54,034 bases of DNA, taken from assembly GCA_934122215.1 (NCBI GenBank), contig CAKOWF010000002.1:1-54034 (forward strand), read 5' to 3'. A program made the translations under genes and the position numbers. Shown one piece after another: positions 7,501 to 54,034 of the stretch. The notes below the pieces were generated by a model. The model was not told the origin of the DNA, made no database searches, and worked only from the letters and a program-made list of their open reading frames with translations. How positions within the stretch are numbered: the stretch's first letter is position 1; each line of letters begins with the position of its first letter. Origin of the DNA: an uncultured Bacilli bacterium (lineage in GTDB: Bacteria; Bacillota_I; Bacilli_A; RF39; UBA660).

Positions 7501-9478
7501 AAAATCTTCAGCTACAGAAGGTGATATGTATGATAGATGGAATACTAATAAAATGGCAAAAAATCATGCTTTATGTTTTAGTTTGATAAATCAATCTAAC
7601 CCTGGCACTGCTGGTATTAATGGTAAAAATGGTATTATTATCTCCTTTAATGGTTTTATTCCTGATTCTGTATTAGCAGCAGCGCCTTATGATTTAAATA
7701 CTTTTAATAGCCAGAATACAATAGAAATTGGAAGACAAACTCGTTTTTTCACTGCTAAAAATATGCCTAATTATACAAGAGGAAATTATTCTGAATATGA
7801 TATAGAAATCCAAGATGTTTCATCAAATAAATATAAAAAAATTCAACCTTCATCAATTATATGTTTTGAAGAAGTAGATGAGGATAGCATCAGAGCTGCT
7901 ATAGAACTAGGAAAAAAAATAGGACATCAGGTTCCTATTGAGCTTATTGATAGGAGAAAATTAGCAAAAGAAGAAATGAAATATATTATGAATGCATTTA
8001 CTAGTTTTAAAAATAGTAAAAATATTGATTCTACTTTAGTTGGAGAAATTATTACAAGATTTAATAATGTTAGAAATGCGCATAGATATTCAAGTTTATC
8101 TAATGAGTTGATAGGGGAAACCCCAAATTTTGAAAATGAAGATGCCTTATTTAATAAAAAACATTTAAATGAAATTTTGAAAGAATGTATTAATTTAGTA
8201 GGAGAAAAAATTCGCGATGGACAAGTTCAAGCTGGTTTAAATGCACTAAAAGATATTAAAAATTATATTTTAGAGGAAAGGCAACACTCATTTTTAATGC
8301 CAACTATGTATGAAAAACAAGATATAACAGGAATTGATACAGATATAGATTATGCAATAAATGAATTACAAAGAATTTATGGTCAACCAATTATTAAGCC
8401 ATTATTAGAAAATTACTCAATAGAAACTTTATTAAAATTAAATAGTCATGAATTTGAATCTATAACATTTAATATTGAGAAAGGACTAAGTGATTTTCCA
8501 TCTGAACAATTAACACCAACACAAATACTGCAATGTATTGATATATCACAATTACAAAAAGATATATTTGAAATACATGAAGAAGGATTTTATCAAGAAA
8601 ATCAAATATATGATGAGGAACATATTTCGCGAGTTATCTTATATAGTGAGGTAATTTCAAAAATGGAAGGATATGATGATAAAACAAGAAAACTTTTAGT
8701 AGATGTAGCAAAATATTATTCATGTGGAAGACAGTTGGATGTTGCAGAAAATCATGAAAAATATAGTGCCAAATTGGCTGGTAAAGTATTATCAAAAAAA
8801 TATTCACAGGAAGAAATAAAAATTATTCAAGCTGCAATTGAATTACAAAATTTTAAACCGACAAAGTTAAATTCATTAGAAAAATTTGAAGATGAAAGAA
8901 AAATAAAAAATATGGAAATTTGTAATAAATATAAATTAAATCAAGAACAACAGATTATTGCAAATAAAATAGCTAATTGTATTAGTGATGCTGTTATTTT
9001 AGATCAAACACGATTTGTAGATAAGGTATATTCATCACCGGAAAGCAGTTTCCTTGGCGATAATAGTTTATTAAAATCATCAACAGCTAAAAAAATGGTC
9101 AAATTTAGTTATTCTATGCAAGATTGCTTAGCCCAACAAAAATTGGAAAAATTATCGAATATTGTTAAAATTGATTTTAATGACTTTTATGTAAATTCTT
9201 CAGTTATGGAAATTTTCTTTACTGAAATATTTAATGGTAATTCATATCTTACTAAAGATAAAAAAATCATTGAATCACCAATTGTAAAACTTGAATATTT
9301 AAAAAATAAATTTCCAGAAATAATAAAATTTAATTTAGGCTCATCTGATGATTTAAGTTTAACTAAAGAACAAATAAATTCAATACAAAATTATATATTA
9401 CATAGTAATAGATTATCAAATCATTTACAAACTCGCGATCAGGAAGAAAATATAATAAGTAATGGAATGAGTATTTAA
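4586..9478 (+). CDS. very large (1630 aa) cytoplasmic protein of unknown function
   Basis: Uninterrupted 4.9-kb ORF in a genome where random ORFs are short. No signal peptide, TM segment or P-loop. Contains internal sequence repeats. I recognise no family. Confidence 0.85.
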   Translation: MDSNDIKYYIDNRLKIAEELNKFLETLPEETLNNLEKALSNNNIEQYYNIIVNIDPNFVDKNRITVFSIKLLFFLEYSSETKKLYTEKEYFKLLTNIIDIYGENITEIIDCKYFNINDLDLLNSNFSKYSKVYKSILKDKLSKYIDFDNSIEFLKTVNHNAITEDLIIEQLSNYNFIINSSVRKLLKILPNSILEDGKISKIIIKKLNYKINDCQELLNYLPESAYEDVDFLNEILNVDSSLFVEFYFEHIPKKIKDIQFWEKVCKKYPFIKIINNIPNEKINSDISQQQYNEWKENLVIESILNVPKDAFISFFKKLDNSKKTVNLCEQVVQYIKFKDKNDIEIFLNSIPEESRTQKIYEILLSKSSCILKDIPLQSFIPDISQKQYDKWLENLILVAIANSNNLSEIYYSIPNIKINERIWNKLMDKYVKRDNYNNTYVLNEEDKNILSLKNVEFENITPQMIERAMKQIGKFEVINAPCINRNIENLHGTSKEKYLKWQNSFSKEQKEDYQKWYEKIWIESIPGLGYQNVYNKVPKEALTFQLKKACIDYGDYISIERMPIPETSEELMEYQQLIIYALNKFESIFSSNSSHPIFNFDILKNISTKYINEEIINRAIQISPIYLKYADLQSDNFDELLDIAYKKKLINIGRNRLTTKEKNIIKKFFINNDNLFSTLELEILDSKIVDCIGEFSLESIVRYPNIEELILKLSNDLNVLKTFEFCLNNLKEDQIFLAPLIEKIIKSIRFNPSICEFISTKIDNNIPFSDYEKAIIPYLALNFKECHKITNYDEIINYVKRKNAELENIMLDSNSTLLEIKNAYLERTIGLNYESVINLITIYGNDPESLLQNYINIIPTDYEKLSEKEAIEIIIKLKKFIEIKDIDAIKMDILRFIALEKNNNIEQSYIRYQKATVLENFLRRAYGRDIIKSLSENVDYLQEELEFNGEKYVVRKIYGNFNKMVSLLDAYRKSSATEGDMYDRWNTNKMAKNHALCFSLINQSNPGTAGINGKNGIIISFNGFIPDSVLAAAPYDLNTFNSQNTIEIGRQTRFFTAKNMPNYTRGNYSEYDIEIQDVSSNKYKKIQPSSIICFEEVDEDSIRAAIELGKKIGHQVPIELIDRRKLAKEEMKYIMNAFTSFKNSKNIDSTLVGEIITRFNNVRNAHRYSSLSNELIGETPNFENEDALFNKKHLNEILKECINLVGEKIRDGQVQAGLNALKDIKNYILEERQHSFLMPTMYEKQDITGIDTDIDYAINELQRIYGQPIIKPLLENYSIETLLKLNSHEFESITFNIEKGLSDFPSEQLTPTQILQCIDISQLQKDIFEIHEEGFYQENQIYDEEHISRVILYSEVISKMEGYDDKTRKLLVDVAKYYSCGRQLDVAENHEKYSAKLAGKVLSKKYSQEEIKIIQAAIELQNFKPTKLNSLEKFEDERKIKNMEICNKYKLNQEQQIIANKIANCISDAVILDQTRFVDKVYSSPESSFLGDNSLLKSSTAKKMVKFSYSMQDCLAQQKLEKLSNIVKIDFNDFYVNSSVMEIFFTEIFNGNSYLTKDKKIIESPIVKLEYLKNKFPEIIKFNLGSSDDLSLTKEQINSIQNYILHSNRLSNHLQTRDQEENIISNGMSI

Positions 9479-21473: not shown

Positions 21474-22105
21474 TGAGGATAGTATTTATTGCCCCACCTG
21501 CAGCAGGTAAAGGTACACAATCTAATTTATTGAGTAATGAATTAAATATTGAACACATATCAACAGGAGATCTATTAAGGGAAGAAATAAAAAATGGTAA
21601 TAAAGAATTACAATCAATTATTGAATCAGGAAATTTAGTAAATGATGAAATGATATTATCAATACTATCTAAAAAAATTAGTAACTTAGATAGTTATATT
21701 CTTGATGGCTTTCCAAGAACAATAAATCAAGCTGTTTCATTAGATGACCTATTAAAATCTGAAAATGAACAAATAGATTATGTTATATATTTATCATTAG
21801 ATAAAGAAACGGCAAAAAAGCGCATTTTAGGTAGAGTATCATGTCCAAAATGTGGTAGTGTTTATAACACGATGATTGATGGCATGAATTCAAAAATTTC
21901 GATGGTATGTGACAATTGTAATTCACAACTTACAAAGAGAATTGATGATACAGAAGAAACTTTAAATAAAAGGTATGATACCTATATTAAAGAAACAGAA
22001 CCATTAATTCAATATTATAAAGATAAAGGAGTTTTATATCAAATAGATAGTTCTAGAGATACTATAACTGTTTATAATGATATAAAAAATTTGATTAATG
22101 ATTAG
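21473..22105 (+). CDS. adk: adenylate kinase (zinc-lid type)
   Basis: AGKGTQ P-loop, STGDLLR, GFPRT, and lid CPKCG...CDNC. Confidence 0.95.
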   Translation: MRIVFIAPPAAGKGTQSNLLSNELNIEHISTGDLLREEIKNGNKELQSIIESGNLVNDEMILSILSKKISNLDSYILDGFPRTINQAVSLDDLLKSENEQIDYVIYLSLDKETAKKRILGRVSCPKCGSVYNTMIDGMNSKISMVCDNCNSQLTKRIDDTEETLNKRYDTYIKETEPLIQYYKDKGVLYQIDSSRDTITVYNDIKNLIND

Positions 22106-22844
22106 TATTAAATCTGAACGTGAAATAAATTTAATGCGTGAAGCAGGTAGAATTGTAGGAGATACACATCATTACTTAGAAAAATTTTTAAAACCAGGAA
22201 TAACTACTATAGAACTAGATAAATTAGCTAATGATTTTATTCTTAGCCAAGGAGCAACTCCTTCTTTCAAAAACCTATATGGATTTCCAGGAACAATATG
22301 TATATCAATAAATGATGAAGTTGTTCATGGAATTCCAGGTAAAAGAAAGTTAAAAGATGGTGATATTATTAAACTAGACATTGGTGCTTGTTATAAAGGA
22401 TATCATGGAGATTCAGCTTGGAGTTATGTAGTAGGAAAACCAAGTAAAGAAATTGATTATTTAATGAAACATACAGAAGAAGCTTTATTTGCAGGTTTAA
22501 ACCAAATAAAAGCTGGGGTTCATTTAGGCGATGTTGGGAATGCTATTGAAGAAGTAGCAAATAAATATAATTTAGGAGTAGTCCAAGAATTAGTTGGACA
22601 TGGAATTGGTACTAAGGTTCATGAAGAACCAGATGTTCCAAATTATGGTAAAAAAAATACTGGACCTATCTTAAAAGAGGGAATGACTATTGCGGTAGAA
22701 CCAATGTTAAACTTAGGTACAAGAGATGTATCAATGTTAGATGATGATTGGACAATAGTAACTGATGATGGACTTCCTTCGGCACATTTTGAGCATACAG
22801 TATTAGTAAAAAAAGATGGGTATGAAATTTTAACAAGGAGGTAA
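22098..22844 (+). CDS. map: type I methionine aminopeptidase
   Basis: Metal ligands in DIIKLDIG, GHGIG and AVEPM contexts. Confidence 0.95.
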   Translation: MISIKSEREINLMREAGRIVGDTHHYLEKFLKPGITTIELDKLANDFILSQGATPSFKNLYGFPGTICISINDEVVHGIPGKRKLKDGDIIKLDIGACYKGYHGDSAWSYVVGKPSKEIDYLMKHTEEALFAGLNQIKAGVHLGDVGNAIEEVANKYNLGVVQELVGHGIGTKVHEEPDVPNYGKKNTGPILKEGMTIAVEPMLNLGTRDVSMLDDDWTIVTDDGLPSAHFEHTVLVKKDGYEILTRR

Positions 22845-22848
22845 TTAA

Positions 22849-23109
22849 ATGCCAAAGAAAAATGTTAATAAAAAACCAATTGAAAATGAAACTGTAAGTA
22901 AAAAATCAGCAATTGAAGTAGAGGGAAAAGTATTAGATGTTTTACCTGGAGGACAATTCAGAGTAGAACTATCAAATAAACATACTGTAGTGGCTCACGT
23001 TTCTGGTAAAATCCGAATGAACTATATTCGCATTTTACCGGGTGATACAGTAGTTTTAGAATTATCAGAATATGATTTAACACGTGGGCGTATAACCTAT
23101 AGAAAATAG
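22849..23109 (+). CDS. infA: translation initiation factor IF-1 (with a ~14-aa N-terminal extension)
   Basis: [20 protein letters not shown]...[11 protein letters not shown]...LTRGRITYR. Confidence 0.95.
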
Positions 23110-23120
23110 GAGGGTAGAAT

Positions 23121-23234
23121 ATGAAAGTTAAACCATCAGTAAAACCAATCTGTCCAGATTGTAAAATAATTAAAAGAAAAGGATCTTTAAGAGTTATCTG
23201 TAAAAATCCAAAACATAAACAAAGACAAGGTTAA
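23121..23234 (+). CDS. rpmJ: 50S ribosomal protein L36 (37 aa; below the ORF-track size cut-off)
   Basis: ATG at 23121 follows GGAGGG. Translation [37 protein letters not shown]. Confidence 0.93.
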
Positions 23235-23247
23235 TAGGAGGTGTTTT

Positions 23248-23613
23248 ATGGCACGTATTAAAGGTGTAGATATACCAGATAATAAAAGAATCGAAATCGC
23301 ATTAACTTATATTTATGGAATTGGTAGAAGTTTATCAAACCAAATATTAAATGATGCTGGTGTAGATATCAATAAAAGAGCAAAAGATTTATCAAATGAT
23401 GAATTAAATCAAATTCGTAACGAAATTGATAAATACACAATCGAAGGTGATTTAAGACGTGAAGTAAATATGAATATTAAAACTAAAATGGAAATTAATT
23501 CATATGAAGGAACTCGTCATAAAAAAGGATTACCAGTAAGAGGTCAAAGAACAAATAGAAACGCAAGAACTCGTAAAGGTAAAGGTAAAACAGTAGCTAA
23601 TAAGAAAAAATAA
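23248..23613 (+). CDS. rpsM: 30S ribosomal protein S13
   Basis: [11 protein letters not shown]-terminus. Confidence 0.98.
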
Positions 23614-23638
23614 TAAACTGTAAAAGGAGGTTATATAT

Positions 23639-24022
23639 ATGGCTTATAAACCAAGAAAACGTAAAGTTAAGAAAAATGTACCAGAAGGTAGAGCATATAT
23701 TCGTTCAACTTTCAATAACACTATAGTAACACTTAGTGATAAAGAAGGTAATGCACTTAGTTGGGCATCTGCTGGAACATTAGGTTTTAAAGGAAGTAAA
23801 AAATCAACTCCATTTGCTGCAGGTATGTCAGCTGAAGCTGCAGGACGTGCTGCATATGATATGGGAATGAGAAAAGTAGAAGTTTTCGTTAACGGATTAG
23901 GTTCTGGACGTGAAACAGCAATTCGTTCATTACAAACAGCTGGTCTAGAAATTTTATCAATCACTGATGTAACACCTGTACCACATAATGGATGTCGTCC
24001 ACCAAAACGTCCTCGTGGATAA
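23639..24022 (+). CDS. rpsK: 30S ribosomal protein S11
   Basis: [12 protein letters not shown] and [11 protein letters not shown] motifs. Confidence 0.98.
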
Positions 24023-24041
24023 TAGAAAAGGAGTGATTAAA

Positions 24042-24992
24042 TTGTTAAACTTTGAAAAACCAATATATAAAATAACAGATTATATAGAAAATAATAATTA
24101 TGGAAAATTTGAAATTGAACCTTTAGAAAGAGGTTTTGGTATTACTTTAGGTAATGCACTTAGAAGAGTAATGTTATCAAGTATGCCAGGTAGTGCAATA
24201 GTAGCTGTAAAAATTGAAGGAGTAATGCATGAATTCCAAACTATGGAAGGTGTAGTAGAAGATGTAACATCTATCGTCCTAAATTTAAAAAGTGTTGTTG
24301 TTAAAAAGAACTCTGAAGGCATTTCACGTGCTCATATTTCAGTTTCAGAAGAAAGAACAGTAACAGCAGCAGATATTGAATCAGATGATGATATTGAAAT
24401 CATTAATCCAGATCAAGTTATTGCAACTTTAGCTAAAGGTGGAAAATTAGAAATGGAACTAATAATTTCTAATGGTAGAGGATATGTACCTTCTACAGAA
24501 AATAAATCATTTGTAGAAGAAGAAAAAATTGGATTTATTCCAATAGATGCACTATATTCTCCAGTTGAAAGAGTTAGTTATGATATTGAAAGTGCTCGTG
24601 TAGGACAAGATGCAAATTATGATAAATTAATTATGTGTGTAACTACAAATGGATCACTTCGTCCAGAAGAAGCAATGGCACTTGGAGCTAAAATATTAAT
24701 TGAACATTTAAATATTTTAACTGATTTAAGTGAAATAGCAGATACTACTGGAGTTATGAATGCAAAACAAGAAGATTCTAAACTTAAAAAATTAGAAACA
24801 TCAATAGATGATTTAGATTTCTCTGTTAGAGCTTATAATTGTTTAAAAAGAGCCGGTATTAATACTTTAGGCGATTTAACAGAAAAAACTGAATTAGAAA
24901 TGATGAAAATACGTAATTTAGGTAAAAAATCTTTAAAAGAAGTAATAGATAAAATTAAAGATATGGGACTTAAATTCCGTGAAGAAGATTAG
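24042..24992 (+). CDS. rpoA: DNA-directed RNA polymerase subunit alpha
   Basis: TTG at 24042 follows AAAGGAG and lies downstream of the rpsK stop, giving LLNFEKP...[15 protein letters not shown]. The track start at 23988 overlaps rpsK. Confidence 0.95.
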
Positions 24993-25006
24993 AACGGAGG
25001 ATTAAT

Positions 25007-25363
25007 ATGGCTTATAGAAAGTTAGGTAGAACTTGCAAACATAGAAGAAGTATGTTAGCAAATTTAACTAAAGACTTAATTATGAATGAACGTATTGAAA
25101 CTACTGAAACTAGAGCTAAAGAAGTAAGAAAATTTGTTGATAAAATGATTACTTATGGTAAAGATGGTTCATTAGTTTCAAGAAGAAAAGCTTTAGCGTT
25201 TATGCAAAATGATACAGAAGCAACTAAAAAAGTATTTGACGATTTAGCTAAACGTTATGCTACTCGTAATGGTGGATATACAAGAATAATTAAACTATCT
25301 GAGAGAAGAGGAGACGACGCTTTAATGGTAGTTTTAGAATTAGTTGAAGGAGATGCTAAATAA
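25007..25363 (+). CDS. rplQ: 50S ribosomal protein L17
   Basis: [21 protein letters not shown]-terminus. Confidence 0.97.
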
Positions 25364-25375
25364 GCATCTTTTTTA
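25351..25375 (+). terminator. rho-independent terminator ending the alpha operon
   Basis: AGATGCT, loop AAATA, AGCATCT, then T6. The rplQ stop codon lies at the loop/3' arm junction. Confidence 0.65.
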
Positions 25376-25427
25376 ATTAATTAATAAAAATATTTAAAAT
25401 TATGATATAATTAATGTGGTGTTGTAT

Positions 25428-26321
25428 ATGGAAATAAACTATTCTAATAATTCATTTAAAAGTAAAATTATAAAAATATTAATTAGATTGTCCGGTTTTA
25501 AAAAAAATACCAGTTCAATAACTAATACACAAAAACATATATCAAAATGTATAAATAAGAAAATAAATAAGAAATTTTTTAGAAAAATGACTAAATTAAG
25601 TTATAATGGATATACATTTTATACTTGGAATGGAAATGTAGAAAATAGTAGAGATTCATTTTTACTATATATACATGGTGGTTCTTTTATAGATAAGCCA
25701 TTAAACATTCAATTAAATTTTGTTAAAAAAGTCGCAAAAAAATTAAATTCAACCTTGATAGTTCCATTATATAAAACAATTCCTACAGGAAATTCTCAGA
25801 AATTATTAGAAGAAATGAAAGTCATATATCAAATGTTATTAAAACAACATAATAAAATTTATTTAATAGGGGACTCAGCTGGAGGCGGAGCAGCATTATC
25901 CTTAAATTTAGTATTAAAAGAAGAAAAGATTAGTAAACCTAGCGGTACTATTATGTTAAGTCCATGGTTAGATTTATCATTATCAAATCCGAAGATAGTT
26001 GAAAAAAAGGATATTGTATGTTCTATACCAGGAAATAAATATTGTGGTAAAATATGGGCTGATGAATATGATATTAAGGATTATAAGGTAAGTCCTATTT
26101 ATGGCAATTTTGATAATTTAAATAAAGTTTTTATCTCATGTGGTGGTAATGAAATATGTCAACCAGATTGTATAAAACTTGTTGAAAAGTTAAAAACAAT
26201 GAAAATAAATTATAAATTTGTTCAATTTGAAAATCAATTTCATAATTTTGAACTTTATCCAATTATCGAATCTAAAATATTAATAGATGAAATATATAAA
26301 TATATTGTAGGGGGATGTTAG
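25428..26321 (+). CDS. alpha/beta hydrolase fold-3 esterase/lipase (HSL-like)
   Basis: Oxyanion motif YIHGGSF, nucleophile elbow GDSAGG, C-terminal His in QFHNF. Alternative GTG start at 25416. Confidence 0.75.
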   Translation: MEINYSNNSFKSKIIKILIRLSGFKKNTSSITNTQKHISKCINKKINKKFFRKMTKLSYNGYTFYTWNGNVENSRDSFLLYIHGGSFIDKPLNIQLNFVKKVAKKLNSTLIVPLYKTIPTGNSQKLLEEMKVIYQMLLKQHNKIYLIGDSAGGGAALSLNLVLKEEKISKPSGTIMLSPWLDLSLSNPKIVEKKDIVCSIPGNKYCGKIWADEYDIKDYKVSPIYGNFDNLNKVFISCGGNEICQPDCIKLVEKLKTMKINYKFVQFENQFHNFELYPIIESKILIDEIYKYIVGGC

Positions 26322-26322
26322 T

Positions 26323-27264
26323 ATGCTACAAAAATTTTTATCAATAAAAGAATTAGAATTATTATCTACTGAAGAAAAAGAAAAATATTATCAAATGGTT
26401 AGGGAATATTGTAATTTGATTAAAGTTAATATAGAATCAAAAAAGATTAGTAAAAAAATTATTTCTTTATTAGCGCCTCACCTAAGAAAATATAAACTAG
26501 AAATATATGGCGATGAAAATATTCCAAAAGAAGATTCAGCAGTTTTTATATGTAACCATTCAAATTCACATGATTTTTTTACATCACAAGAAGTATTTAA
26601 TCAATTGAATAGAAACGTTACTCCATTTGGTGCATCTGATTGCTTGAACTTTCTAAGTTTGCAAATGTTTAAATTAGGTGATGTAACTTTAATTGACAGA
26701 GATGATAGAGAATCATCATTAAATGGATTGATGAATTTCACAAAAAAAGTTATTGAAGGTGAGGATGGAATAATTTTTGGAGAAGGTACTTGGAATTTAC
26801 ACCCTATTAAACCTATGCAAAGCATAAAAGTAGGTGGTACCCAATCAGCAATCATAGCAGATAAGGTAGTTATTCCAACTATATTTGAATATGTTGAAGT
26901 CCCTGATATAGTATCAAAAGAAAATGAAATATATTCTAGATGTATAGTTGAATTTGGAAAACCAATAATTGTTAAATCTGAAGATAATATTATAGAAAAA
27001 ACAAAATTAATTCAATTTACATTAGAAGAAATGCGAAAGAATTTATGGAAAAAATTAGGTATAAAAAGAGAATCATTAGATGATATAAATAAGCAAGTAT
27101 ACTTAAATCATACATATATGAAAAAATTTAAAGGATTAGGTTTTGAATACGATTCAGATCACGAATTTCAATATTTGTTAAAAGATAAACAAGGTAATTA
27201 TGAAAATGAATATACATTAAATGAAAATAATGAATTTGTACCAGGAATAACACACAAAAAATAA
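26323..27264 (+). CDS. PlsC/LPLAT-family acyltransferase
   Basis: HX4D motif NHSNSHD and FGEGTW (the FPEGTR equivalent). Confidence 0.7.
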   Translation: MLQKFLSIKELELLSTEEKEKYYQMVREYCNLIKVNIESKKISKKIISLLAPHLRKYKLEIYGDENIPKEDSAVFICNHSNSHDFFTSQEVFNQLNRNVTPFGASDCLNFLSLQMFKLGDVTLIDRDDRESSLNGLMNFTKKVIEGEDGIIFGEGTWNLHPIKPMQSIKVGGTQSAIIADKVVIPTIFEYVEVPDIVSKENEIYSRCIVEFGKPIIVKSEDNIIEKTKLIQFTLEEMRKNLWKKLGIKRESLDDINKQVYLNHTYMKKFKGLGFEYDSDHEFQYLLKDKQGNYENEYTLNENNEFVPGITHKK

Positions 27265-27281
27265 TATTTTTTGTGTTTTTT
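27252..27281 (+). terminator. AT-rich rho-independent terminator
   Basis: 11-bp stem ACACAAAAAAT/ATTTTTTGTGT, 3-nt loop, then T5. Confidence 0.5.
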
Positions 27282-27287
27282 GTTGTG

Positions 27288-27316
27288 TTTACAAGCAAAT
27301 TTAATTTTGATATAAT
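27288..27316 (+). promoter_or_regulatory. candidate sigma-A promoter with extended -10
   Basis: TTTACA, 17-nt spacer, TATAAT, preceded by TGA. Confidence 0.45.
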
Positions 27317-27334
27317 TATAATTGGTGATGTAGA

Positions 27335-29143
27335 ATGTCAAATCAATACTTTTCAATTTGTGGATTACTATGTATTATTTTACTTATGGTTGTATTTTTC
27401 TGTAAGAAAAAAATTAACTCTATTGAAACAAAGATTTATGGAATAATGCTTATTTGCAGTTGTATTGATGTGCTATTGGTAATATTGGAAGTTTCATTTG
27501 GCTATATGAATTTAGCCAGTATTCCATATGATTTATTAAAACTTTTAAATAAAATAGATATGATTTATTATGTTTTATGGCCAACATTATTATTTTTATA
27601 TATGTATTATATTACTTACAAAAATGAACAAAAATATATGCAGTTTCGTAATTTTTGCTTTATTTTAGATGCCATATTTATTATTATAGAATTTCTTTTA
27701 CCAATAAATATTATTAATAATAATGGAGAAATGGGAGTAGATGGTATGGCAACAAATTTCGTATTATTAATTGCAACTATATATTTTATTGCAATACTTG
27801 TTGTTATATTAAGAAATTTTAAGTCTATTAAATTAAAAAAATGTATTCCATATATTACTTTAATTATTTTTATGGTATTAGCAATCTATTTAAGAAACCT
27901 TTCACCAACATTAATTGTAATTCCTGCAATAATGGTATATATTGATATGATTATGTATTTTACAATAGAAAATCCAGATTTAAAGTTGTTAAATGAATTT
28001 TATAGAGTAAGAAAAAAAGAAGAAAATAATAATGATGCCAAAAATGAATTTTTAGCTAATATATCAAAAGATATTAAAACACCTATTGCCAATATTAAAG
28101 CAATATCTAGTGAAGCTCTAAATAGTAATGATCCAGAGATATTAAAAAATGAAATAAGAAAAATTCAAAGTTCAACTAGTACCTTAAGTCAATTAGTTAG
28201 TAACATATTAGACATTAGTGATATAGAAAAGCAAAAATTAGGCATTAAAATGAATAAATATCAGGTATATAACATGTTTAATGTTATAAGTAAATCATTT
28301 GAAAAAACTGTAGATAGTAATATTGAATATCGTTTTAACTATGATAAAAGTATTCCAGATTTTTTATATGGTGATTCAATTAGAATTAAACAAATAGTCA
28401 ATATAATATTAGAAAATTCAAGAGAATATACAGAAAAAGGTTTTATAGAATTAAGGGTCAATTCTATCATTAAAAATGATATTTGTAGATTAATAATAAC
28501 AATAGAAGATTCTGGAATAGGAATATCAAGTGATAAATTAGATCATTTATTTGATAAAGAAAAAATATATAGTGATAAAACTTTAAAAATAATAGACGAT
28601 AATAAAAATAACTTAGGAATAGCTAAATCAATTATAGATTTAATGAATGGTAGTATAACAGTTAATAGTGAATTAGGGATAGGAACAAAAATCACTATAG
28701 CAATAGACCAGATAATTAATAAAGAAAATAAAACAAATATTGAAGAAACTGTAGATCAATATGAAAAAATGCTTTTAAAAAAGAAAAAAGTATTATTAGT
28801 AATTAGTTCACCAGAATTAAGTAAGAAAATTAATTCTTATTTAAAAAAATCATCTTATGACATTATTGAAGTAATAGGTGGTCAACCATGTTTAGAAAAA
28901 CTTCGAAATAAAGAAAAATATAACATAATATTAATAGAAGAAAATTTACAAAAATTAAGCAGTGAAGATACATTAATAAAAATAAAAGATACTCCTGGTT
29001 ATAAAATACCTGTTGTACTTATATCAAATAACAAAGGATTTGGTATGAAAGAAATGTATCAAGAAAAAGGATATAAAGATGTAATTTTTATGCCAATTAA
29101 AAAGAATGAATTACTTGAAATTATAAAAAACAATCTTGATTAA
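27335..29143 (+). CDS. 7-TM histidine-kinase-like protein with a C-terminal receiver-like domain; canonical phospho-sites are substituted
   Basis: Seven hydrophobic segments. H-box-like NEFLANISKDIKTP has Lys where His is expected. HATPase N-box ENSREYT and G1 DSGIGI are present. The REC-like tail has SS and E in place of DD and D. Confidence 0.8.
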   Translation: MSNQYFSICGLLCIILLMVVFFCKKKINSIETKIYGIMLICSCIDVLLVILEVSFGYMNLASIPYDLLKLLNKIDMIYYVLWPTLLFLYMYYITYKNEQKYMQFRNFCFILDAIFIIIEFLLPINIINNNGEMGVDGMATNFVLLIATIYFIAILVVILRNFKSIKLKKCIPYITLIIFMVLAIYLRNLSPTLIVIPAIMVYIDMIMYFTIENPDLKLLNEFYRVRKKEENNNDAKNEFLANISKDIKTPIANIKAISSEALNSNDPEILKNEIRKIQSSTSTLSQLVSNILDISDIEKQKLGIKMNKYQVYNMFNVISKSFEKTVDSNIEYRFNYDKSIPDFLYGDSIRIKQIVNIILENSREYTEKGFIELRVNSIIKNDICRLIITIEDSGIGISSDKLDHLFDKEKIYSDKTLKIIDDNKNNLGIAKSIIDLMNGSITVNSELGIGTKITIAIDQIINKENKTNIEETVDQYEKMLLKKKKVLLVISSPELSKKINSYLKKSSYDIIEVIGGQPCLEKLRNKEKYNIILIEENLQKLSSEDTLIKIKDTPGYKIPVVLISNNKGFGMKEMYQEKGYKDVIFMPIKKNELLEIIKNNLD

Positions 29144-29162
29144 ATTCAAGATTGTTTTATTT
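29129..29162 (+). terminator. rho-independent terminator
   Basis: 11-bp stem AACAATCTTGA/TCAAGATTGTT, 6-nt loop containing the stop codon, T-rich tail. Confidence 0.6.
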
Positions 29163-29189
29163 GACAAGTAAATTAACTTATGTTAGAAT
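29161..29189 (+). promoter_or_regulatory. sigma-A promoter
   Basis: TTGACA (29161-29166), 17-nt spacer, TAGAAT (29184-29189). Confidence 0.5.
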
Positions 29190-29217
29190 ATCATTTACAT
29201 CAAAAGGGGGAGAAAAT

Positions 29218-30612
29218 ATGGAAGAAGAATTAAATATATCTTCATTATTAGAATTGTTTAAAAAATGGTTTTTGTTAATTTTGCTATTTACTTTAATAGG
29301 TTTAGGTTCAGCAATATTTTATGGCTACTCATCACCTATTATATATGAAAGTACGACAACTTTATATGTAGAACCACAAGTAAATTCTAGTATAGTAGAC
29401 TATGAGGGAATATTAACTAATAGTAAAATGATAAAAACTTACAAACAAATTATTAAGAGTAGAAAAATAGTAAATAAAGTAATTGACAATTTAAAATTAG
29501 ATATAACTTATGATAAATTAATTGATATGATGACAATCTCTGCAGTATCCGACACTGAAATGTTATCAATAAATATTAAAAGCGAATATTATCAACAGGC
29601 TACAATTATAGCAAATGAGTTAGCTAATGTTTTCATTGATCAAATGAAAATTGATATGGGTATAGAAAATATAGTGGTAATTGATCCAGCTATAGATAAT
29701 TTAACACCAGTAGAACCAAATATGATGAAGTTATCATTATTAGGACTACTAGCAGGAATTATGTTTGGATGTGCCTTTGCTTTTATATTAGAAACAATGG
29801 ATAATAAAGTAAAAAATCATGATGATGTAAAAAAATATCTAAAAATTAAAACTATAGGTATGATACCAAATTACAATGTGGTAAATGATCAAAAGAAAAA
29901 AATAAATACAATTAGTAAAAATACAAATATTAAAATATTAGATGAACCTAATAATATAGCTTCAGAGTCAATTAGAATGTTAAGAACAAATTTAAATTTT
30001 ATGGATTTAAAAGTAATAAATGCTGTTTCAACTGTACCAAGTGAAGGTAAGACAGAGGTATTAACAAATTTAGCATTATCATTCGCATTATTAGAAAAAA
30101 GGGTAATATTAGTTGACTGTGATTTAAGAAAACCAAAAGTACATAAAAATTTTGGATTATGTAGAGGTATAGGTGTTAGCGATATTGTAATATCAAAAAA
30201 TAAATTAAACTATAAAGAAGCAATTCAAACATATACAGATAAAAAAAGTAATATATCAATAGATGTGTTAGCAGCAGGTTCTAAAGTGTCAAATCCATCA
30301 GAATTAATAAATTCAAAAAGTTTCTCAAATTTAATTCAAAATTTAAAAGAAGAATATGATCTAGTACTAATAGATTGTCCACCTATATCATCAATGACTG
30401 ATGGTATGTTAGTTTCATATTTAAGTGATGGTACAATATATGTAATTGAATCAGAGCGAACAGATTATCAAGTAATCAAAAGTTGTTTAGAAGAATTAAA
30501 ATCAAATAAGGCTTTCATATTAGGTGCAGTATTAACAAAAGTTAACATAAAAAATCAAAAAAAACTATATGGCTATAAATACGATTATTATTATGCAAGT
30601 TATGATAAATAA
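29218..30612 (+). CDS. fused Wzz-type chain-length-regulator domain and BY-family protein tyrosine kinase
   Basis: ATG at 29218 follows GGGGGAG. Two TM segments flank a ~150-aa loop. Walker A PSEGKT, Walker A' VILVDCDLRKP, Walker B LVLIDCPP, and C-terminal Tyr cluster YGYKYDYYYASYDK. Confidence 0.85.
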   Translation: MEEELNISSLLELFKKWFLLILLFTLIGLGSAIFYGYSSPIIYESTTTLYVEPQVNSSIVDYEGILTNSKMIKTYKQIIKSRKIVNKVIDNLKLDITYDKLIDMMTISAVSDTEMLSINIKSEYYQQATIIANELANVFIDQMKIDMGIENIVVIDPAIDNLTPVEPNMMKLSLLGLLAGIMFGCAFAFILETMDNKVKNHDDVKKYLKIKTIGMIPNYNVVNDQKKKINTISKNTNIKILDEPNNIASESIRMLRTNLNFMDLKVINAVSTVPSEGKTEVLTNLALSFALLEKRVILVDCDLRKPKVHKNFGLCRGIGVSDIVISKNKLNYKEAIQTYTDKKSNISIDVLAAGSKVSNPSELINSKSFSNLIQNLKEEYDLVLIDCPPISSMTDGMLVSYLSDGTIYVIESERTDYQVIKSCLEELKSNKAFILGAVLTKVNIKNQKKLYGYKYDYYYASYDK

Positions 30613-31318
30613 TATAGTAGATATACATTCACATATTATATTCGGTGTAGATGATGGTGCCGAAACTATAGAAGATAGTATTAAAACACTAGAATTATTA
30701 GAAAAATTAAATATAAAAAAAGTAATATGTACTCCACATTTATGCCAAGGTAATATTGACCATATAAAAAAGATAAAAGAAAATTATTTAAAAATTAGGG
30801 ATATAGCCAAACAAAAAAATATTGATTTATATTTGGGGTCAGAAATATTAATAACACCAGAAACTTCAAATTTATTATTAAAAAAAAGATTAAGATCTTT
30901 AAATGGAAACAAATATGTATTAGTTGAATTCAAAAGAAATGAAAATATGGAAGAAGATAAAGCAATATCATTATTAGAAGAAATAATAGATGTTGGATAC
31001 AAACCTATATTAGCGCATCCGGAGTTATATATAAATTATAGGAATATAAAATTTATCAAAAAATTAAAAGAAATAGGCATATTATTACAATTAGATGCAA
31101 GTAGTATTTTAAGAAAAAAAACATCAAGAAAAATATATAAATATAGTAAGAAATTATTAAAACTTCATCTAATAGATATTATTGCTAGTGATAATCATTC
31201 CAATAGCAAAAGAAATTATTTAGTAATGAAAGAAGCATATAAAGTTATAAACAAAAAATATGGAAGAGAATATGCTAAAATATTATTTAGTACTAATCCA
31301 TATGAAGTGTTAAACTAA
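30602..31318 (+). CDS. PHP-family protein-tyrosine phosphatase (CpsB/YwqE type)
   Basis: DIHSHIIFGVDDGA, CTPH, LAHPE and ASDNH metal-binding motifs. The start overlaps the kinase stop. Confidence 0.85.
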   Translation: MINNIVDIHSHIIFGVDDGAETIEDSIKTLELLEKLNIKKVICTPHLCQGNIDHIKKIKENYLKIRDIAKQKNIDLYLGSEILITPETSNLLLKKRLRSLNGNKYVLVEFKRNENMEEDKAISLLEEIIDVGYKPILAHPELYINYRNIKFIKKLKEIGILLQLDASSILRKKTSRKIYKYSKKLLKLHLIDIIASDNHSNSKRNYLVMKEAYKVINKKYGREYAKILFSTNPYEVLN

Positions 31319-31329
31319 TGCTTCTTTTA

Positions 31330-31358
31330 TTGATTTTATTAAATTAATATTATATAAT
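31330..31358 (+). promoter_or_regulatory. sigma-A promoter
   Basis: TTGATT, 17-nt spacer, TATAAT. Confidence 0.5.
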
Positions 31359-31380
31359 CAGTAATAGGATAGGTGTTAAA

Positions 31381-31992
31381 ATGAAAAAAGGATTTACATT
31401 AATAGAATTAATAGCTACTCTAGTTATATTATCAATAGTAGCAATAATAGTTGTACCAAACATAGATAAGAATTTTAAAAAAATGGTAAAAGGTGTAACA
31501 GATGTTCAAAAAGAGGCAATCATAGAAGCTTCAAAAAATTGGGCAAATGACAACATAAATAGTATGCCAAGTGTAAATGATGGAGTTGTATACGTATATT
31601 TAAAAGAATTAAAAGATGGTGGATATCTATCAGAAAATGTATATAAAAATACAGATTTAACAGAATATAATGACAACATTTTTATAGAAATAACTTGCAA
31701 AGTAATAGAATCAGATCAAAATAATAATAATAACTATAAATATAATTATAATTTATATGACACAAATGAAAAATTATTAATTTTTTTAGCAACCAAATAT
31801 GCAAAAAATAATACTATTTCTAGTACAACAGTTTTATCAGTTCCAACATTATTACAATATTTACCAAATGAATTAGTTGATTTAAAAGTAGAAAATAAAT
31901 TAAAAAGTATAGAAGAGACAGGTTTAATTAGTAATTCAACAGTAACTATAGAAAATAAAAATGGAATCTATAACTATATTGTTCAACAATAA
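31381..31992 (+). CDS. type IV pilin-like / pseudopilin protein
   Basis: Class III signal MKKG|FTLIELIATLVILSIVAIIVV (prepilin cleavage/methylation motif with Glu+5); 203 aa. Confidence 0.75.
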   Translation: MKKGFTLIELIATLVILSIVAIIVVPNIDKNFKKMVKGVTDVQKEAIIEASKNWANDNINSMPSVNDGVVYVYLKELKDGGYLSENVYKNTDLTEYNDNIFIEITCKVIESDQNNNNNYKYNYNLYDTNEKLLIFLATKYAKNNTISSTTVLSVPTLLQYLPNELVDLKVENKLKSIEETGLISNSTVTIENKNGIYNYIVQQ

Positions 31993-45014: not shown

Positions 45015-45054
45015 TAAAAAGTAGTGGTAACTAATAGTAAACTGGGTGATATAT

Positions 45055-45771
45055 GTGTTTGAATTTATTGTTTGTGATGACCAAGTAATGTTTTCAAAGG
45101 GTATTGTCAAGTTAATTGACAGTATTTTTATGAAAAATTCTTTTGATTATACTATTAAATCATTTTCTAATTATGATGATAACTTTGAAGAAATAATTAA
45201 AAGAAAAGGTTCAAAGATATATATTTTAGATATAGAATTAAACAATGGTATATCAGGTATTGATATAGCAAGAAAAATCAGAGAGTATGATTGGAACAGT
45301 ACAATTATTATGCTAACATCACATAGTGAGATGGGATATGATGTTTTAAAAGCTCAAATAATGGTTCTGGATTTTATATCTAAATTTGAAGATTATAAAT
45401 TAAGACTTACTCAATTGATAGAAAAAATTATAGAAAAAGAAAATATAAAAGGAGTAATTCATTATACAAATAAAGGATATAGTTATCGAATAGATATATC
45501 AAATATTTTATATATAGTAAAAGAACCACTAGGAAGAAAGTGTAAGGTTGTTACTATTAATGGAGAATATGATATTACTTGTACATTAAGTGAAATAATG
45601 ACTAGATTAGATGAAAATTTTTATTTAACGCATAGAAGTTGTATAGTTAATACAGCACATATTGAACATGTTGATTGGACCAATGGGATTATTATTTTTG
45701 ATAAGGGTCAAGAAATCAATTTGTTGTCAAGAGAGAGGAAAAAGGGATTGAAAAATTATGTTAATGTTTAG
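45055..45771 (+). CDS. agrA: LytTR-family response regulator (AgrA-like)
   Basis: The receiver has Asp in IYILDIEL. C-terminal LytTR domain (FYLTHRSCIVN). GTG at 45055 follows GGGTGA; the track start is 45046. Confidence 0.85.
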   Translation: MFEFIVCDDQVMFSKGIVKLIDSIFMKNSFDYTIKSFSNYDDNFEEIIKRKGSKIYILDIELNNGISGIDIARKIREYDWNSTIIMLTSHSEMGYDVLKAQIMVLDFISKFEDYKLRLTQLIEKIIEKENIKGVIHYTNKGYSYRIDISNILYIVKEPLGRKCKVVTINGEYDITCTLSEIMTRLDENFYLTHRSCIVNTAHIEHVDWTNGIIIFDKGQEINLLSRERKKGLKNYVNV

Positions 45772-47068
45772 TATGTACATTGTTGGGGTAGTATATAATT
45801 TGCTGTACTGTTATTTGTTTTGTAAGTATGTATTAAAAGAAAAATTTAGAGTAAATAAAAGAATGGTAGTAATTAGTTGTATATTTTCTATATTTTTATG
45901 CTTAAATTTTTATTATAACAAAACACCACTTAAACCTTTTGTTTCACATATAATATTTTTTGCTGCTATAAAAATATCATATAATGATACATTAATTAAG
46001 TCTTTAATTGGATTACTGATTTCATTTATAATTGTATCTATCAGTGAACTTATTTTTAGTTTATTGTTTGTTAATTTAATTGGAATAAAATTAGATTTCT
46101 TAAATACTACGGCATCTGGTTTTATATTTGGAAATTTTCAAATAATTGTTATAGGAATTATTATGTGTAATATTAGAAAAATAAAAAACGTATTTTATAA
46201 TATAATAATTAATACAGGAAAAGATAATGGTTATAGCTTATTATTTTTTGTAATATTAAGTTTATCAATTGTAACATTTATTTTATATGAAAATATGAAT
46301 AGTAGTAATTCAATTACATATATAATTTTAATAAATCTATTTTTTATAAGTGTATATGTATTTATGATAGGTTTCTTTGTTCAAAAGTCAAATAATAACA
46401 AATTAACTAATAAATACGATCAATTAATTGATTATTCAAAAACTTATGAACAAGAACTAGTTAAGAGAAGTAAAAAACAACATGAATATAAAAATCAACT
46501 AGTAATTATTAAAAGTATGATTGAAGATAATGATGCTGATGTAATCGATTATATAAATGGCATATTACATGACAATGATAAAAATAAAGATACAAAGTGG
46601 TTGACTAGATTAACTAATATACCTTTAGGTGGTTTAAAAGGATTAATATATTATAAAATTAATGAAATGATTTCAAAAGGTATTGATGTAAATTTGGAAG
46701 TTGCTGAATCTTTAAATAAAAAGTCATTGTGGAAAAATTATTCAGAAAATTCTCATGATATAAGTAAAATCATAGGTGTATATATTGATAATGCTATAGA
46801 AGCTGCTAGTTTATCTACAAGCAAAGAAGTAGAAATACAATTTTATTTAGAAAATAATAATATTGTATTATGCTTGGGTAATACTTTTGTTGGAAATATT
46901 GATTTATCAAAGATAGATGCTGAAGGGTATAGTACTAAAGGTAATAATAGAGGTTATGGATTACCATTAGCTAAAGATTTATTAACAAAGCATAGTGACA
47001 TATTAGAAAGTGAAAGAACTATAATACATAATTATTATGTACAAAATTTAATGATAAAAATAAAATAA
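45758..47068 (+). CDS. agrC: AgrC-like sensor histidine kinase (HPK10 type)
   Basis: 6-7 TM segments, H-box KQHEYKNQL, N-box YIDNAIEA, G-box NRGYGL. Confidence 0.8.
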   Translation: MLMFSMYIVGVVYNLLYCYLFCKYVLKEKFRVNKRMVVISCIFSIFLCLNFYYNKTPLKPFVSHIIFFAAIKISYNDTLIKSLIGLLISFIIVSISELIFSLLFVNLIGIKLDFLNTTASGFIFGNFQIIVIGIIMCNIRKIKNVFYNIIINTGKDNGYSLLFFVILSLSIVTFILYENMNSSNSITYIILINLFFISVYVFMIGFFVQKSNNNKLTNKYDQLIDYSKTYEQELVKRSKKQHEYKNQLVIIKSMIEDNDADVIDYINGILHDNDKNKDTKWLTRLTNIPLGGLKGLIYYKINEMISKGIDVNLEVAESLNKKSLWKNYSENSHDISKIIGVYIDNAIEAASLSTSKEVEIQFYLENNNIVLCLGNTFVGNIDLSKIDAEGYSTKGNNRGYGLPLAKDLLTKHSDILESERTIIHNYYVQNLMIKIK

Positions 47069-47088
47069 AAATGGTACAAACCATTTTT
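47067..47088. terminator. bidirectional terminator between convergent agrC and agrD
   Basis: 9-bp stem AAAAATGGT/ACCATTTTT, loop ACAA, with an A-run upstream and a T-run downstream. Confidence 0.6.
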
Positions 47089-47108
47089 ATTTTATATAGA
47101 AGAACATG

Positions 47109-47234
47109 TTATTTTTCAATTATGCTTTTTGGACATTCTGGTTCATCAATAAAGAATGCTATGCAACCATTAGCTCCTAAAGTACTAACTGCCCCACCTA
47201 GAAGTCCTAAAACTGATGCAAATAATTTTAACAT
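47109..47234 (-). CDS. agrD: autoinducing peptide precursor AgrD (41 aa; not in the ORF track)
   Basis: AGGAGGTGGAGAA then ATG. Translation MLKLFASVLGLLGGAVSTLGANGCIAFFIDEPECPKSIIEK: amphipathic leader, Cys-containing core, conserved acidic DEPExPK tail. Lies 23 nt downstream of agrB. Confidence 0.8.
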   Translation of the reverse strand: MLKLFASVLGLLGGAVSTLGANGCIAFFIDEPECPKSIIEK

Positions 47235-47257
47235 TTCTCCACCTCCTTTATATATAT

Positions 47258-47866
47258 CTAAACATTACTGTTTAAACCATAGTTTTTATAATTTTTATAA
47301 GGAAGATTAAATATCTTATAAGTTAATGGATTAATTAATATAACCTCTGTAAAAATACCAAATAATATTAAATTAGTAATAGTATTAGTAGTAAAGAAAG
47401 AAATAATCAATAAAATTAAAGTATTAATACTAGTTATTACTTTATATATAATCCTTTTTTTTCTATTAATTAAAGGCCTTTTATATGTATCAGAAGGTGC
47501 ATATAAAATTATAAGAATAAACAATATAAGACTTATAATGATATGTAATGACAATGGAATGAATAATAATTTAGAAATATATGGAAAAATAACAAACATA
47601 ATTGTAGAAGAAATCCAACAATCAATACTTCTTTTCGCATGTATTCCAAAACCTGTCAATCTTAATATGTTAAATGTAATCAACATAATAAGCATTTCAT
47701 TAAATAAGTTTAATATAATACACAATATAGAAATAACAATTAACTTAGTCATAGATAAATAAATACCTTCTAGACCATATCTAATTTCTTCAAGTTGTGT
47801 ATCACTATAATCAGGATAGTATTTTTTAATACTATTCATAGAAAAATTTAAACATATATTTTTCAT
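47258..47866 (-). CDS. agrB: AgrB, AgrD-processing membrane endopeptidase
   Basis: ILRLTGFGIHAKRSIDCWISS (His/Cys catalytic context) and LYAPSDTYKRPL motifs; multi-TM. Confidence 0.88.
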   Translation of the reverse strand: MKNICLNFSMNSIKKYYPDYSDTQLEEIRYGLEGIYLSMTKLIVISILCIILNLFNEMLIMLITFNILRLTGFGIHAKRSIDCWISSTIMFVIFPYISKLLFIPLSLHIIISLILFILIILYAPSDTYKRPLINRKKRIIYKVITSINTLILLIISFFTTNTITNLILFGIFTEVILINPLTYKIFNLPYKNYKNYGLNSNV

Positions 47867-47985
47867 TTAATTCTCCTTTACATCTCTAGAATACATCAAA
47901 AAAAATGATAAAAATAAATCATCATTTTGAATGTAAATAAGAACGTTTAAGATATAAAAAAAAATACATAAATTAATCATTAAAT

Positions 47986-48015
47986 ACCGTTTATGTACAA
48001 AAACATACAGTTCAT
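47986..48015 (+). promoter_or_regulatory. candidate LytTR operator (9-12-9 direct repeat)
   Basis: ACCGTTTAT (47986-47994), 12-nt spacer, ACAGTTCAT (48007-48015); 7/9 identical. A -10-like TATGAT at 48044-48049 starts 28 nt downstream. Confidence 0.4.
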
Positions 48016-53252: not shown

Positions 53253-54034
53253 ATGTTAAGTAGTATATATTTTCAATCCCTTAGTTTAATATATATTATT
53301 TTATTGATTATTATATATTTTACAAAGAAACATTTGTCATCAATAGAAAACACTATTTTTTCTATTTTGATTGTAATAAATTGTATAGGATTAATTCTTG
53401 ATATAGCGAGTATTTTTACAATAATAAATATGGATTCATTACCACTTATTAATGTTATTATAACAAAATTATATCTAATATATTTATTAACATGGATATC
53501 ATTATTGACACTTTATATTTATACAATTTCATTTAAGGATAATGGTAATAATAAAAGTTTTAATAATAAATTTAAAATAGTTTTAAAATTTGAAATAATT
53601 ATGTATATTATATCCGTAATAATAGTTTTTGCTTTGCCTCTTTACTATTTTTATCAAGATAACATTATATATTCATATGGGCCAAGTTCAATCTTTTTAT
53701 ATGTAATCAGTAGTCTATATATTTTATCATGGATTTATTGCATGATAAAAAATTTTAAGAATATTAAAAACAAAAAATATTTACCTATGTTTGCATATAT
53801 GACTATTGGCATAGTTGTAATTATTATTCAGGGATCAAATCCATCAATATTACTAATGACATCGATGGAATCATTTATAGTATTTTTAATGTATTTCACA
53901 ATAGAAAATCCAGACTTACAAATGTTAAAAGAATTTCATAAAGCAAGAGAATTAGCTGAAGAATCAAATAAAGAAAAAACAGAATTTCTATTCAATATAT
54001 CAAATCAAATAAAAACACCAATAAATAAAATAAT
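53253..54034 (+). CDS. 7-TM histidine-kinase-like protein, paralog of 27335-29143 (3' end outside the window)
   Basis: ATG at 53253 follows GAGGTG and the frame stays open to the window end. It shares MYFTIENPDL(K/Q)(L/M)L and an H-box-like TEFLFNISNQIKTP that has Asn where His is expected. Confidence 0.75.
   Translation, partial: MLSSIYFQSLSLIYIILLIIIYFTKKHLSSIENTIFSILIVINCIGLILDIASIFTIINMDSLPLINVIITKLYLIYLLTWISLLTLYIYTISFKDNGNNKSFNNKFKIVLKFEIIMYIISVIIVFALPLYYFYQDNIIYSYGPSSIFLYVISSLYILSWIYCMIKNFKNIKNKKYLPMFAYMTIGIVVIIIQGSNPSILLMTSMESFIVFLMYFTIENPDLQMLKEFHKARELAEESNKEKTEFLFNISNQIKTPINKI

Follow-up and report, generated by a model that had tools for sequence, protein, structure and literature searches.

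The gene at positions 27335 to 29143 (+ strand) of the 54,034-nucleotide stretch of DNA that we analyzed, hereafter the window (an uncultured Bacilli bacterium of the RF39 lineage, UBA660; GenBank assembly GCA_934122215.1, contig CAKOWF010000002.1), encodes a homolog of seven-transmembrane (7TM) hybrid histidine kinases that has neither the phospho-accepting His nor the phospho-accepting Asp. We conclude with high confidence that it is a phosphotransfer-dead pseudokinase maintained by selection, and we propose, at a probability of about 60%, that this histidine pseudokinase signals by protein contacts, having kept the full 7TM hybrid-kinase fold without autophosphorylation or receiver phosphorylation. 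The gene, called the query below, and its parts lie as follows.

27335..29143, + strand: pseudokinase coding sequence, a His-less and Asp-less 7TM hybrid histidine-kinase homolog of 602 aa (open reading frame, translation, Pfam, and the ratio of non-synonymous to synonymous substitution rates, dN/dS)
27335..27979, + strand: 7TM sensor domain, residues 1-215, with an outside beta-hairpin at 125-136 (AlphaFold model of the transmembrane, or TM, domain only; per-domain identities)
27953..27979, + strand: junction motif MYFTIENPD, residues 207-215, leading from TM7 to DHp helix 1 and near-invariant in the family (conserved columns)
28037..28234, + strand: DHp (HisKA) domain, residues 235-300, with K245 in the phospho-His column (Pfam, HK853 alignment)
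28235..28714, + strand: CA (HATPase_c) domain, residues 301-460 (alignments; lid 408-425 with pLDDT <50)
28781..29140, + strand: Asp-less pseudo-receiver (REC), residues 483-602 (RR468 alignment)

This order of parts, from 7TM through MYFTIENPD, DHp and CA to REC, is the one that characterizes the family. In the query protein Pfam places HisKA at residues 235-299 (E 2.5e-11) and HATPase_c at 346-458 (E 4.6e-15); its Response_reg hit, at 486-598, scores 30.6 bits and barely clears the cut-off of 30.2. The top NCBIfam matches are partial ones to hybrid kinases of the LuxQ/TorS/ArcB/BarA type, all far under their cut-offs. We assigned the kinase-core columns by residue-by-residue alignment to HK853 (2c2a) and the receiver columns by alignment to RR468 (3dge_C). 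ISKDIKTP aligns with ISHELRTP of HK853, which puts K245 (AAA, 28067-28069) in the phospho-His column, just where the first-pass annotation of this DNA had placed it. The same annotation had seen no His in the DHp region, and the sole His of the whole protein is indeed H404, in the CA domain, so that the DHp domain has no alternative acceptor. Its reading of the ATP boxes also stands: the N-box Asn (N361) and G1 (D392-x-G394-x-G396) are kept, and G2 is degraded from GTGLGL to D422-N-K424-N-N426-L (DNKNNL), with all three glycines lost. The N-box Lys column holds E364.

In the receiver, E535 (GAA, 28937-28939) aligns with the phospho-Asp D53 of RR468, as had been claimed. Two serines at 28805-28810 had been read in place of the acidic DD pair; the acidic pair is absent, but its columns lie one residue earlier, at I490-S491 (28802-28807) rather than S491-S492. 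The claim that the conserved Lys survives in FMPIKK fails, because K105-P106 of RR468 aligns with M586-P587 (M586 is ATG, 29090-29092): the Lys column can be recognized by the invariable Pro that follows it, and K589 of FMPIKK sits three residues later. T83 of RR468 aligns with S564, and this T/S position is the only receiver position to survive. The query thus has the DHp and CA folds of the functional hybrid-kinase class (Pfam; HK853-like model) and has neither the acceptor His, nor complete ATP boxes, nor the DD/D/T/K receiver of a functional HisKA hybrid kinase; it combines a receiver fold without the phospho-Asp, which makes it an Asp-less receiver (ALR), with a histidine-kinase fold without a usable His that is under purifying selection, which makes it a pseudokinase. 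The alignments place no His or Asp in the catalytic columns, bearing out the first-pass view of a pseudokinase and pseudo-receiver on a 7TM module, and, as judged from these columns, the protein is unable to run a His-Asp relay.

The loss is a property of a clade. Among the 120 best homologs of the query, 30 are canonical (SHEIRTP, GTGLGL, DD, D, T, KP) and 90 are His-less, with K or N in that column; apart from one fragment, these 90 are full-length proteins, and in all 89 the G2 glycines are missing too and the receiver sites are degenerate. The D column of the 89 holds E in 62 and D in 27, the latter carrying other disabling changes. Canonical H and D in close orthologs would have pointed to recent loss; the loss is instead shared by orthologs and paralogs down to ~45% identity, and the dead subclades are mutually 45-54% identical. 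We compared the query with its ortholog (80% identical) at L004, a fully syntenic locus of another species, an uncultured gut "Bacillales" metagenome-assembled genome. The dN/dS values are 0.10 for the TM domain, 0.11 for DHp, 0.16 for CA and 0.11 for REC, and 0.13 for the whole gene, next to 0.14 for the neighbouring acyltransferase gene.

These results bear directly on whether the query is a recently decayed, functionless kinase gene. At least eight catalytic residues are lost, and within-species differences are mostly non-synonymous (10 against 3 synonymous), which is what decay would leave, although 13 such differences are too few to interpret. Against this stand the dN/dS of 0.10-0.16 in all domains, a reading frame that is intact in all full-length homologs, a dead pattern that extends across divergent subclades, and new clade-specific motifs that are conserved. 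Since the dead pattern is common to the clade and dN/dS is low, recent decay does not account for it; the selection and conservation data refute this reading, to which we give next to no weight.

In a non-redundant comparison, column conservation in the pseudokinases exceeds that in canonical members for CA (0.78 vs 0.71) and REC (0.72 vs 0.70), and is far lower for the TM domain (0.48 vs 0.73). The ATP lid is replaced in the pseudokinase clade by the motif HLFDKEKIYSDE.LK.IDDTKNNLG (in short form HLFDKEKIYSDE..IDD.KNNLG), and further conserved motifs are GGQ.CLE, EKLSSEDTL and GYKIPV, together with FG.KEMYQEKGFKDV on receiver alpha4-beta5. CA is the most conserved part of the clade, and the query, like 20 of 21 His-less representatives of the family (see below), retains the N-box Asn that binds Mg as well as the Asp and glycines of G1, which bind adenine. 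This could mean that the protein is still an enzyme or a nucleotide switch: the binding of ATP or ADP to CA, or the hydrolysis of ATP there, would gate its conformation, or CA would phosphorylate a non-His acceptor on another protein. We consider this rather improbable: all three G2 glycines have disappeared, as has the N-box Lys that contacts phosphate, with position 364 varying between E, D and T within the clade, the lid has given way to another conserved motif that is modelled with low confidence, and DHp is without its acceptor His.

The first-pass annotation had also taken Glu535 for a phosphomimic, so that the Glu would mimic phospho-Asp and lock the receiver, and with it the protein, in one state, here taken as constitutively "on." Glu prevails in the D column of the clade (62/89) and is also the most frequent residue there in Asp-less receivers generally (PMC12632262, citing Maule et al. 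2015). However, a phosphomimic is thought to act through the conserved T and K (PMC12632262), and in the query the Lys (M586) and the metal-binding DD pair (I490, S491), which are needed to hold a phosphoryl-like group, are gone; moreover, the column is D in 27 of the 89 clade members and D, E, T, K or N in wider His-less relatives, and the hypothesis has been disproved in some pseudo-receivers (PMC12632262). Two members, P0022 and P0023, have cytoplasmic parts that are 94% identical and carry N and K, respectively, in the His column. With K and N exchanging at such identity and E and D in the other column, both positions look unconstrained rather than tuned, and we regard a locked state as unlikely.

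We then placed the clade within its family by means of two censuses, both of which are samples rather than totals. A profile search of 1.84 billion cluster representatives (50% clustering) yielded, among its best 150 matches, 137 with the 7TM domain; 116 of these keep the His and 21 (15%) do not, having Q, N, S, Y or K in its place. G2 is lost in 19 of the 21 His-less representatives, and the N-box Asn and G1 are kept in 20, while the receiver site is still intact in 9 and its Asp lost in 8. All but one of the 21 are 590-625 aa long, the exception being 761 aa, and nearly half of the canonical representatives are 650-1038 aa and carry additional domains. The second census, of ~300 genome and metagenome loci, gave 233 unique family members, 200 with the His and 33 without. 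Canonical members from these loci have G2 in 183/186, D in 178/178 and K in 174/175 cases, and an intact G2 occurs in 0/33 His-less members. Because canonical members are near-invariant for G2, D and K and the query and its relatives are without them, the loss in the query is not due to chance.

The members come from uncultured Bacilli of human, rabbit, ruminant and chicken guts that go under the names Tenericutes, Mycoplasmatota or Erysipelotrichaceae; Clostridium sp. CAG:451, Coprobacillus sp. CAG:605 and Candidatus Faecenecus are among them. Genomes with several paralogs, and tandem arrays, are common in the family. At L029 (JAZQQJ010000028.1, ~3511-6800), a His-less member that has no receiver immediately precedes a canonical one, both on the same strand; among the loci examined, this is the sole case of a dead member beside a live one. 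One named member of the clade is publicly annotated as "hybrid sensor histidine kinase/response regulator," so that two-component counts for such genomes are probably inflated.

Live and dead members differ in their downstream genes. Of 156 canonical members, 78 have a gene for an Hpt or Hpt-REC protein downstream, against 0 of 20 His-less ones (Fisher p = 4e-6); behind the canonical P0101, for instance, lies the gene of a 257-aa Hpt+REC protein. A search confined to the 54-kb window turned up no Hpt-REC homolog. These observations also weigh on whether the query acts solely as a phosphatase, or as a sink for phosphate, on a response regulator or an Hpt protein. D246 and T249 fit the E/DxxT/N phosphatase motif of HisKA kinases, but this motif is not conserved in the pseudokinase clade (Q/D/E/N/S at His+1, T/E/N/V/A/Q/I at His+4), the receiver cannot accept phosphate, and no Hpt or regulator gene is linked; such a role is very unlikely. 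At the locus of P0101 (L209, 8742-11200), the kinase and Hpt-REC genes are followed by a C39-peptidase ABC exporter and small ORFs of 58, 44 and 50 aa, which resemble a bacteriocin or peptide-pheromone module. We rejected a link to peptide quorum sensing, as a C39 exporter lies downstream in only 2 of 156 canonical loci.

The sensor domain was modelled with AlphaFold on its own (pLDDT 87, pTM 0.85) and within the full-length protein (pLDDT 78). The models show seven TM helices (residues 5-23, 30-57, 65-95, 98-121, 138-160, 167-189 and 196-210) and a single short outside beta-hairpin of 12 residues, and TM7 runs nearly straight into DHp helix 1. The kinase core of the model resembles HK853, WalK, DivL and RetS, with the lid (408-425) at low confidence. 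Residues 1-215 match no Pfam family at E up to 1, including 7TMR-DISM. The best matches of the sensor in the PDB (Foldseek) are the 7TM bundles of class C, class B and adhesion G-protein-coupled receptors (GPCRs), with TM-scores of 0.55-0.66 and E >=2.5e-3, and no bacterial sensor appears among them. We rejected GPCR homology, reading matches this weak as common topology only. The sensor is of a 7TM type outside Pfam, and in the literature that we searched we found no description of a hybrid-kinase family with this 7TM domain and MYFTIENPD; the family thus appears to be undescribed there.

The sensor has a history different from that of the module to which it is attached. Genes for acyl enzymes (AMP-binding, PlsC-type acyltransferase or abhydrolase) stand upstream in 23 of 26 His-less members and in 101 of 167 canonical ones, and two of them precede the query.

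25428..26321, + strand: Abhydrolase_3 esterase/lipase-type gene, first of the cassette (Pfam; same order at the canonical loci L007 and L209)
26323..27264, + strand: PlsC-type acyltransferase gene, second of the cassette (Pfam; blastp, 78% identical to the L007 copy)
25398..27984, + strand: 2.6-kb block of abhydrolase, acyltransferase and 7TM sensor (blastn, 75% nt identical to the canonical-kinase locus L007)

The TM domain of the query is 55-80% identical to those of canonical kinases (80% to P0057), and its DHp, CA and REC domains are only 26-42% identical to theirs; relative to other pseudokinase clades the pattern is reversed, with 25-35% for TM and 38-88% for DHp/CA/REC. At L007, the abhydrolase (60% aa identity) and the acyltransferase (78%) precede the canonical kinase P0057. 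L221, in turn, is the corresponding site on the chromosome of a related species (rpoA-rplQ ... Wzz/BY-kinase-CpsB-pilin-ZIP-WhiA). By blastn, the window matches it at 92% over 22001-25375, the 2.6-kb block has no nucleotide homology there, and the match resumes, at 84%, at 27953, which is the first base of the MYFTIENPD codons. In place of the block, L221 has a gene of 217 aa, one for an AMP-binding enzyme, and another 7TM sensor. The breakpoints thus lie at ~25376-25398 on the left and at 27953-27984, within the MYFTIENPD junction, on the right. Given this split homology, with the block shared with L007 and the flanks with L221, a true-kinase lineage contributed a block that took the place of the AMP-binding gene and the other sensor, and the query gene is a mosaic in which a foreign sensor and two enzyme genes are joined to the resident dead DHp-CA-REC module. 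The same dead module (80-94% identical) is found on at least four other sensors, and P0022 and P0023, near-identical in their cytoplasmic parts, have TM domains only ~27% identical; going by these protein identities, sensor shuffling is recurrent in the family. An AT-rich hairpin between the acyltransferase gene and the pseudokinase was rejected as a terminator (z -0.16), and as it is not significant we do not claim monocistronic transcription of the pseudokinase.

From these data, which are sequence and gene context throughout, we outline how contact signalling might work. True kinases of the family would signal via the downstream Hpt-receiver protein, and the dead members have lost this Hpt linkage while keeping the sensor and the adjacent acyl-lipid enzyme genes. 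In the query, the sensor and the two upstream enzyme genes arrived as one block from the true-kinase lineage and were joined at the junction motif to the dead module. The 7TM domain may respond to a membrane- or lipid-related condition linked to the enzymes encoded next to it. The dead DHp-CA-REC module may pass the state of the sensor on by protein contacts, the likeliest route being that it would bind and modulate true paralogous kinases, or some other partner, through the lid motif and the alpha4-beta5 face of the pseudo-receiver, in the manner of RocA with CovS and RetS with GacS. Kinase-dead homologs that act by protein contacts have precedents in RocA, PsmA and DivL. That the protein works specifically as a heteromer modulator is possible, and we put it forward tentatively, at less than even odds. 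Further still, the conserved 27-nt junction might serve to plug a mobile unit of sensor and acyl-lipid enzymes onto either a live or a dead kinase core, the dead version being a decoy or modulator that reads the membrane-lipid signal of its live twin and tunes the phosphorelay without phosphate; this proposal is doubtful, and if true it would represent a modular system of live/dead sensor pairs, undescribed for two-component signalling.

Several points weigh against signalling by contacts. The hint of a lipid signal comes only from gene neighbourhood. The retention of N361 and of the G1 DxGxG, which extends to 20/21 His-less representatives, leaves room for nucleotide binding or an enzymatic role, and the 10 non-synonymous and 3 synonymous within-species differences lend no added support.

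Histidine pseudokinases are an established kind of protein, known from few cases: DivL, RocA, PsmA and ChrS variants. New here are the family, the combined absence of His, G2, DD, D and K, a dead clade this large and this well conserved, and the swapping of cassettes of sensor and enzymes between live and dead kinase cores. The clade adds a large natural group of pseudokinases, ~15% of a 7TM hybrid-kinase family that is widespread in uncultured human and animal gut Bacilli, and in the branch of the query both His and Asp are dead, yet the cytoplasmic module is better conserved than in live relatives. The cassette swap means that a 7TM sensor travels with acyl-activating and acyl-transfer genes whether its output is live or dead. 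This linkage of sensor and enzymes offers a testable lead on the ligand of an uncharacterised sensor family, and matched live/dead pairs should be useful for studying pseudokinase signalling.

The closest layout is that of RocA from Streptococcus pyogenes, a Firmicute membrane pseudokinase that binds the true sensor kinase CovS in the membrane and does not need kinase activity (PMC7028121). Its TM region (1-219), DHp domain (238-303), predicted His (246) and CA domain without kinase residues (PMC7028121) parallel TM 1-215, DHp 235-300 and column 245 of the query, a resemblance of layout only; RocA differs in keeping a dispensable His, in its six predicted TM helices and in having no receiver. 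PsmA of Streptomyces is likewise a hybrid-kinase homolog without the H-box His, with a residue there that varies among orthologs, and it has degenerate ATP-binding motifs and no Hpt partner and works by contacting the protein DivIVA (PMC12963549). It is, however, cytoplasmic, with PAS domains, a long disordered linker and a retained receiver Asp, whereas the query is a 7TM membrane protein that has also lost the Asp and has kept the N-box Asn and G1.

DivL of Caulobacter, which is among the structural matches of the query model, has Tyr for His and a kinase fold repurposed to sense the state of a partner (PMC4211667); unlike the query, it has PAS sensors and no receiver, and it belongs to another phylum and network. 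RetS of Pseudomonas, whose kinase core matches the query in sequence and structure, is a 7TM hybrid sensor that regulates through a heteromer with the true kinase GacS rather than by its own phosphorelay (PMC12148439), but its sensor is a 7TMR-DISM with a periplasmic domain and it keeps its His and Asp, while the query has neither 7TMR-DISM nor DISMED2 by Pfam. For the receiver, the parallels are FrzS (a sequence match of the query receiver), CikA-PsR and ShkA-PsR, receiver folds without the phospho-Asp and other active-site residues in which Glu is the commonest replacement (PMC12632262). The query differs from such ALRs in that the kinase core to which its pseudo-receiver is fused is dead as well.

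Downstream, the query is followed by a hairpin and a tyrosine-kinase module of the capsule type.

29127..29158, + strand: 13-bp hairpin over the stop codon with a weak T-run, terminator-like (folding free energy, dG, -15.2 kcal/mol; z -4.8; 0/200 shuffles as stable)
29218..30612, + strand: Wzz/GNVR + BY-kinase (P-loop tyrosine kinase) fusion gene (Pfam; own promoter-like site and ribosome-binding site)
30569..31318, + strand: CpsB/CapC-type phosphotyrosine phosphatase gene (Pfam E 5e-54)

The position of the Wzz/BY-kinase gene is conserved in three species (synteny with L004 and L221), and the pseudokinase stands upstream of Wzz/BY-kinase-CpsB in the window, at L004 and at L221, an arrangement that could suggest direct-contact control of this adjacent module of Wzz/BY-kinase and CpsB phosphatase. 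Four other genes, over ~3 kb, nevertheless intervene at L221, a significant hairpin and a separate promoter-like site lie in between in the window, and wzz or cpsB is downstream in only 2 of 20 His-less loci. With so few loci, this spacing and the hairpin, the link looks positional and confined to this lineage, and we hold direct control of the tyrosine kinase to be as unlikely as a phosphomimic. Within 29218-31992 of the window, the BY-kinase and CpsB genes share 44 nt, and a type IV pilin-like (N_methyl) gene comes next, with no glycosyltransferase or polymerase genes of a capsule locus nearby. On the otherwise near-identical contig L002 (ENA ERZ28614571), syntenic with 26323-31318, the pseudokinase is intact and gene calling splits the acyltransferase, Wzz/BY-kinase and CpsB genes into two pieces each, which may be due to assembly error or to strain-level gene loss.

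A second dead kinase lies at the end of the window.

53253..54032, + strand: second His-less paralog, with N in the His column (FLFNISNQIKTP), cut by the window end (sequence; first 260 aa identical to P0070 and P0086)

Genes for an AMP-binding protein (50046-51884), an NT5C/HAD protein (51894-52472) and an acyltransferase (52476-53240) precede it, separated by gaps of 3-12 nt. The 54-kb stretch thus holds two dead kinases, whose sensors differ (34% identical over the TM region). Duplication of an acyltransferase and pseudokinase cassette was rejected, the two acyltransferases being only 25% identical over 110 aa. In a comparison of 46245-54034 with L219, from a sister lineage, nucleotide identity is 94.8% up to ~50503 and collapses in the 5' end of the AMP-binding gene, whose protein is 65% identical and then 30-45%; the paralog at L219 reaches only ~80% identity, and L219 has neither the NT5C nor the acyltransferase gene. 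The locus of the second pseudokinase is thus a divergent allele, and probably a recombined one, between close lineages.

Two other features of the window may be mentioned. A 1630-aa ORF at 4586-9478 (+), between FtsH-like and ksgA-like genes, matches no Pfam family at E up to 0.001. At 45046-49046 lies an agr-like quorum-sensing locus: a LytTR response regulator (45046-45771), an AgrC-like GHKL kinase (45758-47068), a minus-strand AgrB gene (47258-47866), then a gene with a cold-shock domain and another LytTR regulator (48306-49046).

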